The notes beneath the pieces are model-generated. The model was given only the letters and a program-made list of their open reading frames with translations, was not told the origin of the DNA and searched no databases. Both the position numbers and the translations under genes were made by a program. From IMG/VR virus record IMGVR_UViG_2684622669_000001, positions 1 to 19,618 of that record: a stretch of 19,618 nt of DNA; one strand, written 5' to 3'. The stretch is from a virus. Its lineage: Duplodnaviria; Heunggongvirae; Uroviricota; Caudoviricetes. Below, piece by piece: positions 12,092 to 19,371 of the stretch (within the stretch, counting starts at the first letter, position 1; each line of letters opens with the position of its first letter).

Positions 12092-13441
12092 ATGGCTACG
12101 TGGCAACAGGGTATTAATTCTGGTGGTTTTCTGGCTGGCATCGGTACGCAAAATGAGAATGCGCCAAAGGCAAGCGACATTAACGCAACGCTTGGTCTGA
12201 TCCGCGAAAACAATGAGTTGGCTCGCTCAGGTGCAAATAACGTTGGTCTGACCGCGTTACGTGGTCTGGCTGGAGTTGCTGATATTTATAAGCAGGAACA
12301 GCAACAGAAAGCGATTAATGCGTTCAATAAGGTTCATGCTGATGCATGGGCTTCTGGTGATCCATCGGGACTATTTAAGTTTGCCAAGGAAAATCCAGCG
12401 TTTGTTGCGCAGGCACAACAGGCGTTTTCCGGTCTTAATGAGCAGCAACGCAACGATATGGGCGATTTAGCCATGAGAGCTAACGTCGCTCTTTCTCAGG
12501 GACCGGAAGCCTACAGTAAATTCATTACTGACAACAAGGACAGGTTAAATCGCGTTGGCGCTAATGCTGACTGGATGATTCAGACAGGTATCCAGAATCC
12601 AGAGCAGCTATCACACATGCTGACTACTATGTCTCTCGGTGCGCTTGGACCAGAAAAGGCGTTTGCTGTTCAGGATAAGATGGTTGGTCGCCAGCAGGAG
12701 CAGCAAAGAATTAAAGAAACCATTCGCAATAATGACATGACGAATGCGAGGGCTATTAGGGGTCAGGATCTTTCCTATAAGGCTCAAATGGCAAGACTGA
12801 ATCACGACAAGTATGTGTTTAAGCAGTCACAGGCGGCCCTTGAAAGAGCAGGACAACTTCAGGATATGGATGTTTTGTCTCTTAACTCACAGATAGCAGC
12901 GACGGGAATTGATCCGCTAACCGGTAAAGCTGCAACGTCAGCCAGAATGTCTCAGGCTAAGAGATGGCTTGATGGCAACAATAATTACAACAATGCGTTA
13001 ATTACTGGTGAGCGAGGGATAGAGAAAATTGATTCTTTGCTTGGTAAGAAGGAGCTTGAAGGTATTGGTCGCTTCGAAGGAAGAAATATAGATGGCTTCA
13101 CAAGTGCTGAAGGGCTTGCAAACCGTAATGCGATAGAAGAATTAAAGTCGGGGGCGTTTGTCCAGAACGTGCAGACTATGCGAGGTATGGGTAGCCTCTC
13201 CAATGCTGAAGGCCAAAAACTGGAAAACCTGATCGCGAAACTCGATATAACACAGCCTGAAGAGGTCGTCAGAAAACAGTTATCTGAAATCCGATCGCAA
13301 TATTCTGTATTTCAAAAGGTTGCAGCAAGGGAGGCTGAATCAATGGGATATAGTTCATCAGGTTATGACACATATGTTAGTGAGCGAAAATCAGGAAGCG
13401 ACAGCAATAAGTCCGGTTTCTCGTCTTTATGGGGTGATTAA
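12092..13441 (+). CDS. Ejection protein, P22 gp20-like
   Basis: 449 aa (P22 gp20 is about 471 aa). Position in the operon; SD aagggg. Confidence 0.7.
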
Positions 13442-15609
13442 TGGCTAAAGCATGGAAAGATGTTATCGCTTCTCCACAGTATCAGGCGTTAACTGAAGAA
13501 CAGAAAGCACAGGCTCAAGCGCAATATTTTGATGAGGTTGTTGCCCCTAAGGCTGGTGACAAATGGGCTGAAGCAAGAGATCAGTTTTATGCAGCATACC
13601 CTCCGCCTCAGCAGCAGAAAGAAGAACCATCATTGATGCAACAAGCTGGCGATTGGCTCACTGGTGGTCAAAGTGCAGGGCAAATTGCAGAACAGGCTGG
13701 TCGTGGTCTGGTAAACATACCATTTGACGTATTGCAGGGTGGCGCAAGTCTGATTAATGCAATCAGCCAGGGGCTTGGTGGCCCCAAGGTTTTGGATGAT
13801 GTTTATCGCCCTGTCGATCGACCGACAGACCCTTGGGCGCAAGCCGGTGAAACATTTGGGGGGTATCTCCTGCCAATTGGCACAGCGGCAAAAGCTGCTG
13901 GAGCGACAGCAAAGCTCGCAGGAGACATCGGTTCCGCAGGAAACATGATTGCAGGTTCTCTTGCTGATGCTGCAAATCAGGAGGGCGATTTTGCACAAAA
14001 TGCTGCCATTAATGGTGGTATCAATATTGGTGCTCAGGGGATACTTTCTGGGGCTGGAAGGATCTTAACCTCTAAATCACCTCAAGTTCTTGGTGGCGGG
14101 GCAATAAATTCCGCTGCTGATGTTTCGAAAATGGCAAAGTCTGGTACAGGAAGAGAGATTATTGCCAGACAGTCAGCTAATGTGTCAGACGAAATAGCAA
14201 AAGCAGCAGATACTGCTGGAATAGATATCAACGCATTAACTCCTGGCATGAGATCAGGTAGTCGTGGTCTTGCTCAGGCGGAGGGGATTCTGGCGTCAAA
14301 GCCCGGAATTACACAGGATGCACACACCAAAGCATTCAGTGAAATAGAGTCGAAATTTAACTCAGCATTGGATGAGTTTGGGGCTGAAGCAGGAACTGCA
14401 TCAGAAAAAAGTGCAGCCATAAAACAAAGGGTTTTGGCAAGTATTGATAAAATGAAAAATTCAGAAAAGGCCGCATGGGATAGCGTCCGCTCCACGATTC
14501 CTGACGCAAAGGCCAGAATGTCAAACCTGAACGCTACAATTCAGGGTGATATTTTGGCTGGCATGCCGCTAACTCCTGAGATGAAACAATTCGCATCTGC
14601 TTATGCTAAAACTGGTAAAAAAGGAATCACGTTTGATGCCATGAAGGCATGGCGAAGTAAACTTGCTGACGCAGAGCAGAAGTATATAAGGTCTGGTGAG
14701 GCAAATACGGCAAGGCGCATGGCTGAGCTTCGTGATGCAGCAACGGAAGATATGCGCATAATGGCTCAAAATGGCGGTTTTCTTGATGACTGGCAAAAAG
14801 CTAATGATCTGTCAAAGGCAAGATTTACAGCACAAGAACAGGCTGAAGCAGCGTTTGGTAGAGACCTTGCAACTGATCAGTTGGTAACTAATGGATCTAA
14901 GGCGTTACAGGGTTCAGCAAAAAGTGGAACAGGTCAGTTCCATAAAATAATAAGCGCCCTACCTGAGTCGGAACGCGCGCCAGCAATTGCATCAATATTA
15001 CAAGATGCAATGTCGCAAGGGGTACGCGGAGGTAAGTCTGAAGAGGCTGGAATTAAGCATATCGCGACTATTCTTACCCCACAAAACGTGAAGGCAATTA
15101 GTCGATATTCTCCAGAACTTGGCAGGATTACAAGTTCATACGGAGAACTTGCACGAGCAGCAACAAAGCCACTTCGATATGTTGAACAGACAGGGCGATC
15201 TATGCCAGCCATTAGCACTCTTGAGAATGGCCTTCATCCAGTTTTAGAGAGCGCATTGTCTGGCGCTTTTAGAACTACTGGCACTATCGCAGGGTTCTCT
15301 GGAGGAGGCGTTATTGGAGCAATAGCGGGTGGCGCTGCAGGTGGGGCAATTGATGCAATGGCAAAAGGAGCGATAGCGAAATTATCCGCAACTAGAAGCG
15401 GTCGTTACGCTATTGAAAAGGCTGTTCAAGAGGCAACAAAGGCAGTTAAGGTTGGGGCAAGTGATGGCGCATTAGCGGCGGCGGAACGCAGATTTATGGC
15501 AAATAAGGCCGCCGTAAAAGCAATACGCGAGGCACTAGGAAACGAAGAGTTCCAGCGTTTAGCAAGAGCTGGAATTGTGGCATCGCTAAGCGGAATGGCA
15601 CAGGAGTAA
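13441..15609 (+). CDS. Ejection protein, P22 gp16-like (longer than P22 gp16)
   Basis: 722 aa, last gene of the virion operon, TAATG overlap with the upstream gene. Gly/Ala-rich hydrophobic segment near the C-terminus ([30 protein letters not shown]). Confidence 0.7.
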
Positions 15610-15939
15610 TTAGTCATCCATGGATGGATTGAGCTTATCTCGTGTTGATGTGGCAATTTTCCCAACATTTTTCAACCAAGATTTTAAGAAGGATATGTCG
15701 TCCTTAATATCATGAATATCCTCATTCTTTATACGATCAACCTTATCCTCTAAGCTCTCTATAGAACGCTCAATGCTAGACAGAGAGATTTTTAAGTCCC
15801 CTTGCTCACGTTCCAGTGAGGATTTGAGAGCACAATATTCGTTTTCTAGAATTCCTATTTTTTTTGTTAGAGAGTGCATTCGATACTCATACACCAAACC
15901 AGAAACGACTAATGCAGCCAACAGAAACCATTCAAGCAC
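15610..15939 (-). CDS. Hypothetical membrane-anchored coiled-coil protein (accessory gene)
   Basis: The track ORF 15610-16155(-) is trimmed to the in-frame GTG at 15937-15939, which has a perfect SD aaggagg 5 nt upstream. Predicted product has an N-terminal hydrophobic helix (LEWFLLAALVVSGLVYEY) then a heptad-like charged region. Stop abuts the gp16-like stop. AT-rich. Confidence 0.5.
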   Translation of the reverse strand: MLEWFLLAALVVSGLVYEYRMHSLTKKIGILENEYCALKSSLEREQGDLKISLSSIERSIESLEDKVDRIKNEDIHDIKDDISFLKSWLKNVGKIATSTRDKLNPSMDD

Positions 15940-15969
15940 ACCAACCTCCTTAGTTTTGAACAGGATACC

Positions 15970-16335
15970 ATGAAAAAAGTTAACATTGGAAACGTACCAA
16001 AGATGCTCGTTCCGCTCTTTGAGAGCGGTACAATTGTGTTTTGTAGAGACTTTCCAGAATGGCAACGCCTGCATCAAAAACTTGGCGTTGACGTGCATGA
16101 CTCGGACGCCAACGGAGCGTCTCATACAATGAGTAGCGAGAATGGTGTTTTGCATGTGATAGGCGTGTTCAATGGCAAACTATCTACTATTGCCCATGAG
16201 TGCGCTCACATGGCATTCGATATCTGCTCAAGGGTAGGTGTTGATGTTGAACTAGGAAGAGCCAACGAGACTTACTGCTACTTAATGAGCAGGCTTGTTG
16301 AGTTCTGCGAGCGACATATCAAAAAGCCGGAGTGA
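15970..16335 (+). CDS. Hypothetical HExxH-motif protein (putative minimal zincin-like metallopeptidase)
   Basis: 121 aa, SD agga 4 nt upstream of ATG. Contains IAHECAHMAFD (HExxH) with a downstream Glu in NETYCY, the gluzincin spacing. Stop codon sits in the loop of a terminator hairpin. Confidence 0.6.
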   Translation: MKKVNIGNVPKMLVPLFESGTIVFCRDFPEWQRLHQKLGVDVHDSDANGASHTMSSENGVLHVIGVFNGKLSTIAHECAHMAFDICSRVGVDVELGRANETYCYLMSRLVEFCERHIKKPE

Positions 16336-16610: not shown

Positions 16611-16645
16611 AAAAATTAACCCACCTTCAGGTGGGTTTTTTGTTT
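16611..16645. terminator. Bidirectional intrinsic terminator overlapping the 3' end of the Mnt-like gene
   Basis: aacccacc (16618-16625) / ttca / ggtgggtt (16630-16637), then tttttgttt on + and aattttt on the minus side. The Mnt-like stop codon (16627-16629) is in the loop. Confidence 0.6.
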
Positions 16646-16947
16646 AGCAGTTCTCTCAACTTTTCGTTCTGCTCTCTGAACTTTTCCTGTATTTCTTTTT
16701 GCATGGCGATAACCTGGGCTTGAAGTTGAACTAGCGCATCAACATTTAGCGGAACCGAGACGCTGTTGATTTTATCTGCTATTTCCCCGAGTGTATTTTC
16801 TGCATTCAAGGCATCTTCCAGTATCTGAACAATCTCTGAGTTCATTGATCTGCCGTTACGTTTGGCTCGTTCAGCTATAGCATCCCGCATTCCTGCAGGA
16901 AGCCTGATATTGAACCTATCCATTTCATGACTAGGGAACTTGCTCAT
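16627..16947 (-). CDS. Mnt/Arc-family ribbon-helix-helix repressor (Mnt-like paralogue 1) with extended C-terminal coiled coil
   Basis: 106 aa. FNIRLPAGMRDAIAERAKRNGRSMNSEIVQILEDAL matches the Arc/Mnt RHH motif (P22 Mnt: FNFRMPMEVREKLKFRAEANGRSMNSELLQIVQDAL, from memory). SD gagg. Divergent from the Arc-like gene. Confidence 0.8.
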   Translation of the reverse strand: MSKFPSHEMDRFNIRLPAGMRDAIAERAKRNGRSMNSEIVQILEDALNAENTLGEIADKINSVSVPLNVDALVQLQAQVIAMQKEIQEKFREQNEKLRELLNKKPT

Positions 16948-16989
16948 ATGACCTCAACGTAAAGATGTTCGCTAAACAATAGCACCAAC

Positions 16990-17029
16990 TTGACATCAAA
17001 ATAAATGGTGTTAAATTGGTTCTAGAACC
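16990..17029 (+). promoter_or_regulatory. Candidate rightward promoter (-35 TTGACA, -10 TAAATT) with overlapping palindromic operator
   Basis: TTGACA at 16990-16995, a 16-nt spacer, then TAAATT at 17012-17017. Perfect 12-bp palindrome GGTTCTAGAACC at 17018-17029, inside a 21-bp near-palindrome AATTGGTTCTAGAACCAAGTT (17014-17034). Confidence 0.45.
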
Positions 17030-17058
17030 AAGTTGGCATCATTGTGGGAGGATTACTT

Positions 17059-17232
17059 ATGAAAGATGTGCTTTACACAGGTCGTAAAAGTCAAAGTTTC
17101 CAGCTTCGTTTGCCAGCGCGAATGAAGGAGGAGATTAGACGTGTTGCTGAAATGGATGGAATTTCTATCAACTCTGCGATTGTGCAGCGACTGGCTAAAA
17201 GCCTGAGAGAGGAAAGAGCTAATGCCCAGTAA
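17059..17232 (+). CDS. Arc-like ribbon-helix-helix repressor
   Basis: The track ORF is trimmed to the ATG at 17059, with SD gggagg 7 nt upstream. 57 aa. FQLRLPARMKEEIRRVAEMDGISINSAIVQRL parallels P22 Arc (FNLRWPREVLDLVRKVAEENGRSVNSEIYQRV, from memory). Confidence 0.75.
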   Translation: MKDVLYTGRKSQSFQLRLPARMKEEIRRVAEMDGISINSAIVQRLAKSLREERANAQ

Positions 17233-17312
17233 AAATAGTGAAGCCCGGCAGTGCGTGAACACAAACCGGGCCTCTATGTCAGTAACCGTATGCAAGGAAA
17301 CTAACATGAATA
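17233..17312 (-). ncRNA. Candidate sar-like antisense RNA opposite the antirepressor ribosome-binding site (hypothetical)
   Basis: Minus-strand -10-like hexamers just inside the ant-like start (TACAAT = + 17312-17317; TATAAT = + 17328-17333). Minus-strand GC hairpin 17243-17272 followed by a U-rich stretch in the arc-ant spacer. Analogy to P22 sar RNA. Confidence 0.25.
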
Positions 17313-17932
17313 TTGTAGCAAAATCAGATTATAACTTCCACGGAGTTGAATTGGTGCCCACCCGTGATATGCATGGTGTTTGGTTTACATCATCTAATAT
17401 TGCATCTGCACTTAAATACGCAAATAGTCGTGCAGTAACAATGATTTATAACAAGTATAGCGATGAGTTTAGCGCCGGAATGACTCAGGTACTCGAAGTG
17501 AGTACCTCAGGAAATTATCGCAAAAAAGTGCGTGTTTTCTCACTACGCGGTGCCCACCTAATCGCGATGTTTGCTCGCACTCAGGTAGCCAAAGAGTTCC
17601 GCCGCTGGGTGCTGGATATTTTGGATCGGCAGGCAGAATGCTCACCGATTGCAAAACAGTTTACTGACGAAGAACTGGTTAATCTCTGCTACTTACAATT
17701 GTGGATGGAGAAGAGTCAACAAATGTGCAAACACATCTACCCAGGAATGAAGCAAATTGGTTCTGAGCTTTCAGGAAGGATTTACGATATTGCATATGAG
17801 ACTCGCTACATGTCAGAAGAAACCAAGAAATCACTTCTTCGTGAAATGAAGAATCTTGATACCAACAATTTTGTCGTAAAGAACGCTCAGCCAATGCTGG
17901 CAAAACTGCGCGGCGAGGAATGGATTCATTGA
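17306..17932 (+). CDS. Antirepressor-like protein (Bro-N / P22 antirepressor N-terminal-like domain)
   Basis: The track ORF 17222-17932 is trimmed to the ATG at 17306, with SD aagga 6 nt upstream. 208 aa. ...FSLRGAHLIAMFARTQVAKEFRRWVLDIL... is typical of Bro-N/antirepressor N-domains. Position after arc mirrors P22 arc-ant. Confidence 0.7.
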   Translation: MNIVAKSDYNFHGVELVPTRDMHGVWFTSSNIASALKYANSRAVTMIYNKYSDEFSAGMTQVLEVSTSGNYRKKVRVFSLRGAHLIAMFARTQVAKEFRRWVLDILDRQAECSPIAKQFTDEELVNLCYLQLWMEKSQQMCKHIYPGMKQIGSELSGRIYDIAYETRYMSEETKKSLLREMKNLDTNNFVVKNAQPMLAKLRGEEWIH

Positions 17933-17950
17933 TTGGTGCGCCGGACTGCG

Positions 17951-18026
17951 CAAAAAGAAAACCGCCAGTGTGCTGCTGGCGGCCTATGTCACACACTTAC
18001 TACCACATAAGGAATGCCTAATGACT
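17951..18026 (-). ncRNA. Second candidate antisense RNA with its own minus-strand terminator (hypothetical)
   Basis: Stem ccgccag (17962-17968) / ctggcgg (17976-17982). On the minus strand it is followed directly by GTTTTCTTTTTG (rc of 17951-17961); the + strand has no T-tract. Minus-strand promoter-like GTGACA-17 nt-TACATT inside the first codons of the 18021 gene. Confidence 0.25.
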
Positions 18027-18746
18027 TTTAAGAATGTAGCAAACATCGGATCCGTTGTCACGGATAAAACCATTGACAGCCAAAGTCTTCTGATGATGGT
18101 TAATGAAGCTCGCAAGTTATGTGGAGAGCCATCAGTACGTAACAACAAATTCATCGAGAAAATTGAGGATGAATTGGAAGGCGAGACCTACACAAAAAGT
18201 GTAGGTCGGAAAAACGGGGCTGACATTGATGTTATCTCCATGACTATCAAGCAGGCGCTTCGTGTTGCTGCTCGCGAATCTAAAGCAGTTCGCCGAACAC
18301 TTGTAGACAAACTTGAAAGTATGCAGGAAGCGCACATTAAAAGCGGTAAATCAGCGAGTGGACTTGTTGAGTATCGTCAAGCGCGAACATTGAAAATGAC
18401 GGTTGAAGCTGTTACCAATCTGTTCGATCTGATGCCAAATCTTGCGCCGGAGGCAAAGCAGACAGCGGCAGCAAGTATAATCAACCCGCTCGTTGGTTTT
18501 AATGCAATACCTCTTCCGGCAATAGAAGAGCATTACTACTCAGCAGGGGAGGTTGCAGAGCAGCTTGGAGTAACGGCCAACAAGATTGGTCGCATTGCTA
18601 ACGCAAACAACCTCAAAACTGAGCAGTACGGGAAGTTCTTCCTGGATAAATCTGCGCATTCCAGCAAACAGGTGGAAGCGTTCCGCTACAATGAGGAAGG
18701 TGTTAAAGCACTACAACACCTGATTCATGGGAGTAATGTTGCATAA
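18021..18746 (+). CDS. Second antirepressor-like / phage regulatory protein (Rha/ORF6N-like N-terminus, KilAC-like C-terminus; tentative)
   Basis: The track ORF 17970-18746 is trimmed to the ATG at 18021, with SD aaggaa 6 nt upstream. 241 aa. The N-terminal region (TIDSQSLLMMVNEARKLCG...) is Rha/ORF6N-like and the C-terminal region (YYSAGEVAEQLGVTANKIGRIANANNL...) is KilAC-like. Domain calls are from memory. Confidence 0.55.
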   Translation: MTFKNVANIGSVVTDKTIDSQSLLMMVNEARKLCGEPSVRNNKFIEKIEDELEGETYTKSVGRKNGADIDVISMTIKQALRVAARESKAVRRTLVDKLESMQEAHIKSGKSASGLVEYRQARTLKMTVEAVTNLFDLMPNLAPEAKQTAAASIINPLVGFNAIPLPAIEEHYYSAGEVAEQLGVTANKIGRIANANNLKTEQYGKFFLDKSAHSSKQVEAFRYNEEGVKALQHLIHGSNVA

Positions 18747-18967
18747 TGGCAAAGAAAAAATATGGCATTATGCCGCCAAGAATCAAAGGAAGAGCCAGGG
18801 TAAAAGGCGATGCTGGAAGGTATCACATTCTTGGAGTTCTGTGGCATGAGAGAGCTTTAATTTTAAGTAGACCTCATGGGTACATTGAAAAGGTATCTAT
18901 AGATAGAGTAGAGATTCTTCCCCTTACACCTGAAGAAGAAGAAACGTACGGACTTTTTGATAACTAA
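18746..18967 (+). CDS. Hypothetical small basic protein, translationally coupled to the upstream gene
   Basis: 73 aa. Start ATG overlaps the upstream stop (TAATG). Followed by a strong terminator. Confidence 0.45.
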   Translation: MAKKKYGIMPPRIKGRARVKGDAGRYHILGVLWHERALILSRPHGYIEKVSIDRVEILPLTPEEEETYGLFDN

Positions 18968-18973
18968 CCAGCT

Positions 18974-19004
18974 AAACCCGCTTAATCGCGGGTTTTTTCT
19001 TTTC
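18974..19004 (+). terminator. Intrinsic terminator ending the rightward accessory operon
   Basis: aaacccgc (18974-18981) / ttaatc / gcgggttt (18988-18995), followed by ttt and cttttc. The minus-strand Mnt-like stop codon (18982-18984) is in the loop. Confidence 0.6.
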
Positions 19005-19239
19005 TAAGGATATCAGCCGCAACTTCTTTTACTCGCTCCGAGATTAATGAGGCCAACCTCTCTTCTTCATCACGATACCCGCTTACAGGTGATGGTTTGG
19101 AGAGTGATTCTTCCATCGTAGCCACAATTTCGGAATTGATAGACCTGTTATTCATTTTTGCACGCTGCTTAATCTTAGCGTGCAACTCGTGCGTAAGCCT
19201 CAAGTGGAACTGCGCCTCATCGTATTTGCTGTACATCAT
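18982..19239 (-). CDS. Mnt-like ribbon-helix-helix repressor (paralogue 2, closest to P22 Mnt)
   Basis: The track ORF 18982-19320(-) is trimmed to ATGATG at 19234-19239, with SD gagg 5 nt upstream. 85 aa. QFHLRLTHELHAKIKQRAKMNNRSINSEIV...SKPSPVSGYRDEEERLA parallels P22 Mnt (...NGRSMNSELL...SKPSPVTGYRNDAERLA, from memory). Confidence 0.8.
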   Translation of the reverse strand: MMYSKYDEAQFHLRLTHELHAKIKQRAKMNNRSINSEIVATMEESLSKPSPVSGYRDEEERLASLISERVKEVAADILRKEKTRD

Positions 19240-19371
19240 CAATGCCTCACCAAATGGGTGGAATGGCATCGTAAAACCTACTGTACAAATCAACAATCGT
19301 ACCATTTCGGTATGCAACAAACATCAACCGTAGCCATGCTGCGGCGATTCCTTGTATCTGGAGCAAATTAA

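Follow-up and report, generated by a model that had tools for sequence, protein, structure and literature searches.

The hkcB locus and its annotation

The DNA analysed here, called the window in the following, comprises the 19,618 nucleotides (nt) of the IMG/VR virus record IMGVR_UViG_2684622669_000001 and contains the late operon and the 'ant moron' of a P22-like (Lederbergvirus) prophage. Within this moron, which separates gene 16 from the tailspike gene, the small gene hkcB, the subject of this article, lies antisense to the late operon (Table 1). Between positions 15400 and 16643 the window shares 97% DNA identity with phage HK620, and the GenBank entry of HK620 (AF335538, 2001) contains under the name hkcB (AAK28903 / NP_112088) the same coding sequence (CDS) with the same start; the RefSeq protein WP_000895335.1, annotated by PGAP, likewise agrees in start and extent. 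The open reading frame (ORF) has been publicly available, with its start and name, since 2001. The HkcB proteins of the window and of HK620 are of equal length and 98-99% identical (98.2% by tblastn), and the profile of PHROG 5962, which has 109 positions, is matched over positions 2-109 with E = 1.9e-61. Comparison with homologues of 36-67% identity yielded ratios of non-synonymous to synonymous substitution rates (dN/dS) of 0.14-0.41, and hkcB is therefore a coding gene under purifying selection; this selection extends across the whole protein, and synonymous changes are found upstream of the junction with gene 16. The element is the hkcB gene of an HK620-like Lederbergvirus prophage, and confidence in its identity, start site and architecture is high. 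The family has been listed as being of 'unknown function' (PMC2629481), and in the literature searched this label was the only one found, a role for hkcB being assigned by no paper. The Tai tail-assembly-interference paper names HK620, yet it is unrelated to the hkcB locus.

Table 1 Features of the hkcB locus and its surroundings (positions in the window; aa, amino acids)
Feature	Position	Strand	Remarks
hkcB CDS	15610..15939	-	GTG start 15939-15937, TAA stop 15612-15610; 109 aa, 330 nt
Shine-Dalgarno sequence AAGGAGG	15945..15951	-	5-nt spacer TTGGT before GTG
Hydrophobic membrane anchor LEWFLLAALVVSGLVYEY, residues 2-19	15883..15936	-	Predicted from hydropathy
Heptad-repeat helix, residues 28-103	15631..15858	-	3-4 hydrophobic spacing, one-residue register shift near 71-75
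Conserved C-terminal module, residues 65-106	15622..15747	-	From alignments of homologues
85-bp region resembling the P22 PsieA promoter and leader	15940..16024	-	83/85 identical to P22, 82/85 to HK620
Gene 16, HK620-type ejection/DNA-transfer protein	13441..15609	+	722 aa; convergent neighbour of hkcB
DNA motif TCCAYGGATGGATT	15617..15630		At the gene 16/hkcB junction; overlaps the 12-bp palindrome CATCCATGGATG (15615-15626)
hkcC	15970..16335	+	121 aa; HECAH (HExxH) motif
Sigma-70-like site TTGAGA-17-TAGAAT	15824..15852	+	10/12; inside the hkcB CDS
immI region	16627..19320		Apparently intact

Start codon and extent of the gene

A gene-finding program had listed at this position a minus-strand ORF of 181 aa (15610-16155). 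The sequence-only reading that preceded this analysis had objected that such an ORF would overlap the HExxH gene on the opposite strand, and had instead proposed an in-frame GTG preceded by a perfect AAGGAGG as start of a 109-aa product. Both points were borne out: the overlap with hkcC amounts to 186 nt, and GTG and Shine-Dalgarno sequence occur in 58/58 resolvable loci among the 61 hkcB loci of IMG/VR, the dN/dS values pointing in the same direction. In the most distant homologues, designated L005 (35% identity) and L006 (26% identity), an ATG stands at the aligned start position. Only the claim that the start had been 'reassigned' was overstated, as HK620 hkcB and WP_000895335.1 already use the same GTG. 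The block AACTAAGG(A/G)GGTTGGTGTG is common to the leaders of P22 sieA and of the hkcB genes of HK620, epsilon34 and CUS-3. The 72 codons by which the long ORF extends upstream of the GTG consist of the antisense of hkcC and of translated promoter and leader DNA, and they are unconserved between hkcB loci with differing upstream neighbours.

Two side observations concern the same region. Public databases contain over-extended calls of 134-179 aa, which begin at upstream ATGs located in the antisense of a neighbouring gene or in the promoter; they comprise the 134-aa version of vB_EcoP-611R6 (L014, 5101-5505), the protein clusters P0005, P0027 and P0028, and clusters of 171-179 aa. Furthermore, two IMG/VR loci in the group L017-L077 (upstream class 'ACTAAGGAGGTTGGAGGTTGGTGTG') carry a tandem duplicate of the GGAGGTTG block, which comprises Shine-Dalgarno sequence and spacer, directly before the hkcB GTG.

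Expression signals and the sieA slot

The DNA upstream of hkcB closely matches that of sieA, the exclusion gene of phage P22: 118 of 120 upstream bases of the window are identical to P22, and the annotated start of P22 sieA is the same GTG as that of hkcB. An alignment of the window, HK620 and P22 is near-identical through AAGGAGGTTGGTGTG, which includes the Shine-Dalgarno sequence and the start codon, and homology is lost directly thereafter. Because the upstream bases of P22 sieA, the Shine-Dalgarno sequence and the GTG are common to both genes and homology ends after the start codon, hkcB is a cassette that was swapped into the sieA slot. By this comparison hkcB and sieA are alternative cassettes placed behind a single set of expression signals, for which the base-level evidence is presented here for the first time. 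A SieA motif or a tblastn match to SieA was detected at none of the 62 hkcB loci inspected.

In the P22-pbi record the promoter 'P sieA' is annotated 31-61 nt upstream of the GTG, which corresponds to positions 15970-16000 of the window, a stretch that on the opposite strand belongs to the 5' end of hkcC. A fragment consisting of sieA and 85 bp of upstream DNA, placed in single copy at galK, conferred exclusion by a factor of 10^7 or more (Leavitt et al. 2024; PMC10883804), and sieA was found to be transcribed at a low level in P22 lysogens and to be upregulated on induction (PMC10883804). As the 85 bp upstream of hkcB are identical to this functional P22 fragment at 83 positions, expression of hkcB from its own promoter is well supported, and it is probable from this homology that the gene is expressed in the prophage in this way; the earlier suggestion of an own promoter within the island, for a gene antisense to the late operon, thereby gains support. 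A consensus promoter scan found no minus-strand site within the 85-bp region, and no -35 and -10 hexamers could be assigned to it with confidence.

The extent to which the sieA-type upstream DNA is retained varies among the relatives. In epsilon34 the proximal 45 nt are kept before the hkcB homologue (43/45 identical) and the upstream context is otherwise different. CUS-3 has kept only AACTAAGGGGGTTGGTGTG, and its hkcB homologue is the last gene of a co-oriented mnt operon; the homologues of L005 and L008 are also co-oriented with and downstream of an mnt-like gene. In all of these arrangements hkcB lies on the strand of the prophage-expressed moron genes (sieA, orf59a, mnt) and antisense to the late operon, and mnt is a repressor gene, whose expression from the prophage is to be expected.

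Architecture of the HkcB protein

Residues 2-16 of HkcB have a mean Kyte-Doolittle value of 2.16 over 15 residues and the maximum beyond residue 25 is 0.49, in agreement with the single N-terminal transmembrane (TM) helix noted before. Despite their divergence, six of six family members examined have at the N-terminus a hydrophobic stretch of 15 to about 19 residues. It is regarded as a membrane anchor and not as a cleaved signal because a positively charged n-region and a lipobox are both missing, and a cleavable signal peptide or a lipoprotein with a lipobox cysteine was ruled out on these grounds. In every family member examined, lysine and arginine are lacking before the anchor and two to three such residues follow within 15 residues after it. 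By the positive-inside rule this distribution weakly suggests an N-out/C-in topology, in which the coiled coil would be cytoplasmic.

The remainder of the protein is the charged, heptad-rich tail that the first inspection had described. It has 16 leucine, isoleucine, valine or methionine residues at the a and d core positions, compared with 11.3 +/- 1.0 in shuffled sequences, and 0/300 shuffles reached 16. An AlphaFold2 model consists of one continuous helix from residue 2 to residue 103 with a mean pLDDT of 84. When the same tests were applied to five homologues, the anchor was found in all of them and heptad significance was similar in four; the most distant one, L006, has a weak heptad signal, 18 of 300 shuffles reaching its count. 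The most conserved part of HkcB is formed by the distal ~40 residues, and dN/dS of the C-terminal half is 0.16-0.27. The conserved residues of this module are D68, R69, E73, D74, H76 and D80, followed by W88-x-K90-N91-V92-G93-x-I95-A96-x-S98-T99-R100, of which W88, N91, V92 and G93 are invariant family-wide, even in homologues of 26-35% identity. This conserved family architecture and the C-terminal module are additions of the present analysis.

Junction and linkage with gene 16

The stop codon of hkcB touches the TAA of gene 16 (15607-15609) with 0 nt between them. The same stop-to-stop distance was observed in 56/57 IMG/VR loci as well as in the records of HK620, CUS-3 and epsilon34 and in L008-L010, and in L005 and L006, the distant members, the two stops are 3-4 nt apart. 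In the IMG/VR loci every hkcB-adjacent gene 16 encodes the HK620-type C-terminal tail ...GIVASLSG(M/I).Q(E/D). This invariant junction of hkcB with gene 16 is likewise an addition of the present analysis. That the two stop codons directly abut and that no terminator separates the genes had both been stated correctly at the outset: a consensus scan found no terminator between gene 16 and hkcB, and the RNA fold of positions 15585-15665 was no better than that of shuffled sequences (z = 0.9 and 0.3 for the two strands), so that both a terminator and a structured RNA were rejected for the junction.

The linkage does not extend to the variable part of the gene 16 product (gp16). A CUS-3-like gp16 segment (-300 to -60) is found at 11/31 loci with type-1 HkcB, and only the last 60 gp16 residues, which are conserved everywhere, are linked to hkcB. 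Co-evolution between HkcB type and the gp16 C-terminal part was rejected in view of these frequent recombinants.

Some further observations were made on the DNA and on gp16. Where gp16 has the HK620-type tail, the motif TCCAYGGATGGATT follows the gene 16 stop codon in several of the examined contexts, whose downstream sequences differ. As part of hkcB it encodes NPSMDD*, in L005 a different frame gives ESIRG*, and where hkcB has been replaced (L096, L135, L110) it persists as a non-coding remnant, 35 or 21 nt in length; L099 retains only CCATGGATGG, and L009 and CUS-3 have point variants. Behind gp16 genes with a different tail the motif is missing, and it forms no significant RNA structure. 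Its presence may reflect no more than linkage or a leftover sequence, or else selection on the element. A global alignment of gp16 of CUS-3 (L003, 3822-5981) and HK620 (L001, 1042-3210) gave 78% identity, with 92% over the N-terminal 300 aa and 64% over the C-terminal 150 aa, the differences being concentrated in the C-terminal third; the two proteins are stated to be only 26% identical in PMC10883804. The published inference that gp16 alone explains the partial SieA resistance of HK620 may need re-examination.

Distribution of the HkcB family

The HkcB proteins form a very small family that occurs in P22-like prophages only. A search of 5.8 billion proteins retrieved 26 proteins, and an exhaustive HMMER search of 1.84 billion representatives gave 10 matches, of which about six are genuine relatives, including truncated, over-extended and frameshifted versions; the remaining matches are long coiled-coil proteins or a fusion partner. 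A scan of one genome per species found no relative. The hosts named in the source records are E. coli, Salmonella enterica and Klebsiella aerogenes, and L005 stems from GCA_030005655.1. Type-1 hkcB is present in 82/5426 complete E. coli genomes (~1.5%), the carriers including strain CU568-3, which is labelled O25:H4. Searches in Pfam, NCBIfam and PADLOC returned only sub-threshold coiled-coil matches for HkcB, a profile search of the PDB only GCN4, keratin and designed coiled coils (E >= 0.02), and a fold search of BFVD with the single-helix model no match.

Two proteins, P0022 and P0023 (L158, 1-321), are chimeric: a foreign, non-hydrophobic N-terminal part of 60 residues, which is shared with P0035, is joined at 'DKV' to the conserved C-terminal 45 residues of HkcB, and the chimeric gene still abuts gene 16. 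They occur only on two short metagenomic contigs, on which a real recombinant and an assembly artefact are indistinguishable.

Other occupants of the slot and neighbouring genes

hkcB is an accessory gene, as it is lacking in moron-less phages of the same gp16 type (CurroJimenez_Bas106, Louie, Huey and Dewey). At 25 of the 80 IMG/VR loci with the HK620-type gp16 C-terminus, the slot is taken by other genes. The occupant of L099 is a different protein of ~148 aa with one TM segment, encoded on the minus strand 18-542 nt after the gene 16 stop and preceded by the same PsieA leader (in translation 'GILHKTKEVGV') and GTG. In L096 and L135 the gene following closely after gene 16, on the late strand, encodes a lipoprotein, and in L109 the lipoprotein gene is convergent and stands beside a gp16 with a variant tail (...SGMNEYE); the lipoboxes of these three proteins are LSGC or LAGC. 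L110 has a cytosolic 140-aa protein in the slot. On the whole, the slot gives the impression of a hotspot for morons that target the envelope.

The neighbouring gene hkcC is co-oriented with the late operon and has ~97% DNA identity with the P22 region between sieA and orf59a. Its product matches PHROG 1365 (unknown function; E = 1.8e-39), and no family was found for it in Pfam, NCBIfam or PADLOC. The ATG of hkcC lies inside the PsieA-equivalent promoter of the opposite strand. The sigma-70-like site listed in Table 1, located ~118 nt upstream of this ATG, could by its sequence be the promoter of hkcC, and transcription would then be convergent and overlapping with that of hkcB; the number of sigma-70-like sites in the region does not depart from that expected of shuffled sequences. 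Further downstream, the immI region of the window encodes a 106-aa protein of the Mnt/Arc family (P22 Mnt has 83 aa), a 62-aa Arc, a 236-aa ORF at the position of ant and a further ORF of 258 aa, whereas HK620 has only remnants of mnt, arc and ant.

Comparison with SieA and other membrane-anchored proteins

The homologues epsilon34 gp14 and CUS-3 HkcB are both 50% identical to HkcB of the window and have the same architecture. Relative to HK620, the moron of the window differs by its apparently intact mnt, arc and ant, HkcB itself being essentially alike. With P22 SieA, HkcB shares the slot, the strand, the Shine-Dalgarno sequence and the GTG, and both are small membrane proteins of P22-like prophages, the inner-membrane location being experimental for SieA and predicted for HkcB. 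As proteins the two are dissimilar. BLASTP gave no alignment between them at E <= 100; SieA has 164 aa and HkcB 109 aa; HkcB has a long coiled coil and SieA none; and three TM helices are predicted for SieA (four in types B and C; PMC10883804), compared with one hydrophobic segment in HkcB. The SieA motif FxRYPxEAxxFNK, which is located near the C-terminus, was not found in HkcB by a regular expression that was positive for the P22 control. The gap to gene 16 is 22 nt for P22 sieA and 0 nt for hkcB.

The combination of an N-terminal TM anchor and a coiled-coil helix in a protein of similar size is also known from i-spanins of the lambda Rz type, from FtsB/FtsL and from YhcB/ZapG. The i-spanins differ in that they belong to a lysis cassette and have an o-spanin partner, whereas hkcB is located in the ant moron, with gene 16 on one side and the immI genes on the other. 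The only spanin match of HkcB was sub-threshold (P2_Rz1, E = 0.052, 13.7 bits versus a cutoff of 27), and spanin identity was rejected on gene location. HK97 gp15, T4 Sp and lactococcal Sie2009 are small moron proteins of phages or prophages that have an N-terminal membrane anchor and act at the step of DNA entry. To our knowledge these have not been described as long coiled coils, none of the libraries searched revealed a relationship in sequence to HkcB, and the likeness is architectural only.

Possible functions of HkcB

Of the functions considered for HkcB, superinfection exclusion is the best supported, and we put it forward tentatively on the basis of genomic context. According to this proposal, HkcB would be transcribed in the lysogen from the PsieA-type promoter, would be inserted in the inner membrane via its N-terminal anchor and would oligomerise through the coiled coil; like the non-homologous SieA that it replaced, it would then block DNA delivery by superinfecting P22-like phages, and the distal module or the TM segment might do so by disturbing the conduit formed by the ejection proteins gp16 and gp20 at the inner membrane. 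The context speaking for this function consists of the exact replacement at promoter and start codon, the mutual exclusivity of hkcB and sieA at the 62 loci and the bias of the slot occupants towards envelope proteins. Towards SieA types A and B the ejection proteins of HK620 show only partial sensitivity (PMC10883804), and there is therefore room for a different excluder in this lineage. With somewhat greater reserve, and again judged from sequence, HkcB may be viewed as representative of a second, structurally unrelated class of injection blockers in P22-like phages, namely a single-pass inner-membrane coiled coil that uses the sieA signals in lineages with HK620-type gp16 and disables the ejection conduit by its distal module.

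The sequence-only reading had likewise pointed to superinfection exclusion or immunity, yet had done so from the architecture of the protein. The suggestion is strengthened by the position of hkcB in the sieA slot down to the start codon and by the lack of sieA at all 62 loci; the architecture from which it started, a TM segment combined with a coiled coil, is common and non-specific. Several other points weigh against an exclusion function. No similarity of HkcB to a characterised exclusion, immunity or defence protein was found in the sequence and fold libraries searched, and experiments on its function, expression or localisation were not found in the literature searched. The promoter hexamers are weak and are only 'putative' even in P22. 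Should the soluble domain be cytoplasmic, as the charge distribution weakly indicates, a direct block of the periplasmic conduit would be harder to envisage. The type of HkcB varies independently of the variable C-terminal part of gp16, and a signal of co-evolution with the presumed target is thus missing; the tight linkage between hkcB and gene 16 can be explained by adjacency alone.

An alternative is a role of HkcB in the host. In this case it would be a prophage-expressed inner-membrane moron protein that influences the envelope, division or fitness of the lysogen (lysogenic conversion) in the manner of YhcB/ZapG or FtsB/FtsL. The evidence on expression and localisation is the same as for exclusion, the ant moron is a region of rapid flux whose genes have non-identical functions (PMC2629481), the slot occupants are heterogeneous and include the cytosolic 140-aa protein of L110, and the type of HkcB is independent of gp16 variation. 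We nevertheless consider a host function rather unlikely, given that a proven exclusion gene was replaced exactly at its promoter and start codon, that the family occurs only in P22-like prophages and always beside the gene of an ejection protein, and that the models of DivIC, FtsB and YhcB were unmatched at E <= 1.

A membrane-anchored effector or sensor of abortive infection or defence, which would let injection proceed and abort phage development, for example by membrane depolarisation once a phage component is sensed, appears improbable. Such systems are common in prophage morons and P22 itself has SieB, the soluble domain of HkcB is possibly cytoplasmic, and the activity of the sieA-type promoter rises on P22 induction (PMC10883804). 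The protein is, however, a single helix of 109 aa without a recognisable effector domain, and its sole PADLOC match, DpdH (E = 0.002, 16 bits, zero significant stretches), is not credible.

It is very improbable that HkcB serves the lytic cycle of the phage, through the expression of gp16 and tailspike or the handling of ejection proteins, or that selection maintains the DNA of the 3' junction and not the protein. The invariance of the 0-nt tail-to-tail junction and the persistence of TCCAYGGATGGATT in non-coding form or in another frame after replacement of hkcB could be understood in this way. Such a role is difficult to reconcile with purifying selection on the whole protein and synonymous changes upstream of the junction, with the antisense orientation of hkcB to the late operon, with its absence from related phages of the same gp16 type and with the lack of significant RNA structure at the junction. 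Finally, the 181-aa ORF that begins with the ATG at 16155, and that some automatic annotations call, can be dismissed as the actual product. The frame is indeed open to this position and database versions of 134 to 179 aa exist (P0005, P0027, P0028, vB_EcoP-611R6), but the extension is non-homologous among hkcB loci, the same open extension occurs upstream of the unrelated sieA, the PHROG profile has 109 positions and the distant homologues begin at the short position.

Significance

SieA is among the few exclusion proteins with a known target, the gp16/gp20 conduit for DNA delivery. Without an exclusion function of HkcB, the finding would be reduced to that of a correctly annotated hypothetical moron gene. 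As matters stand, HkcB is a testable candidate for convergent evolution of injection blocking, and it offers a probe of DNA delivery across the inner membrane by podoviruses, notably for the ejection proteins of the HK620 type, which are poorly handled by SieA. If the exclusion function proves true, the HkcB class could explain how prophages exclude phages like HK620, against which SieA types A and B are largely ineffective.

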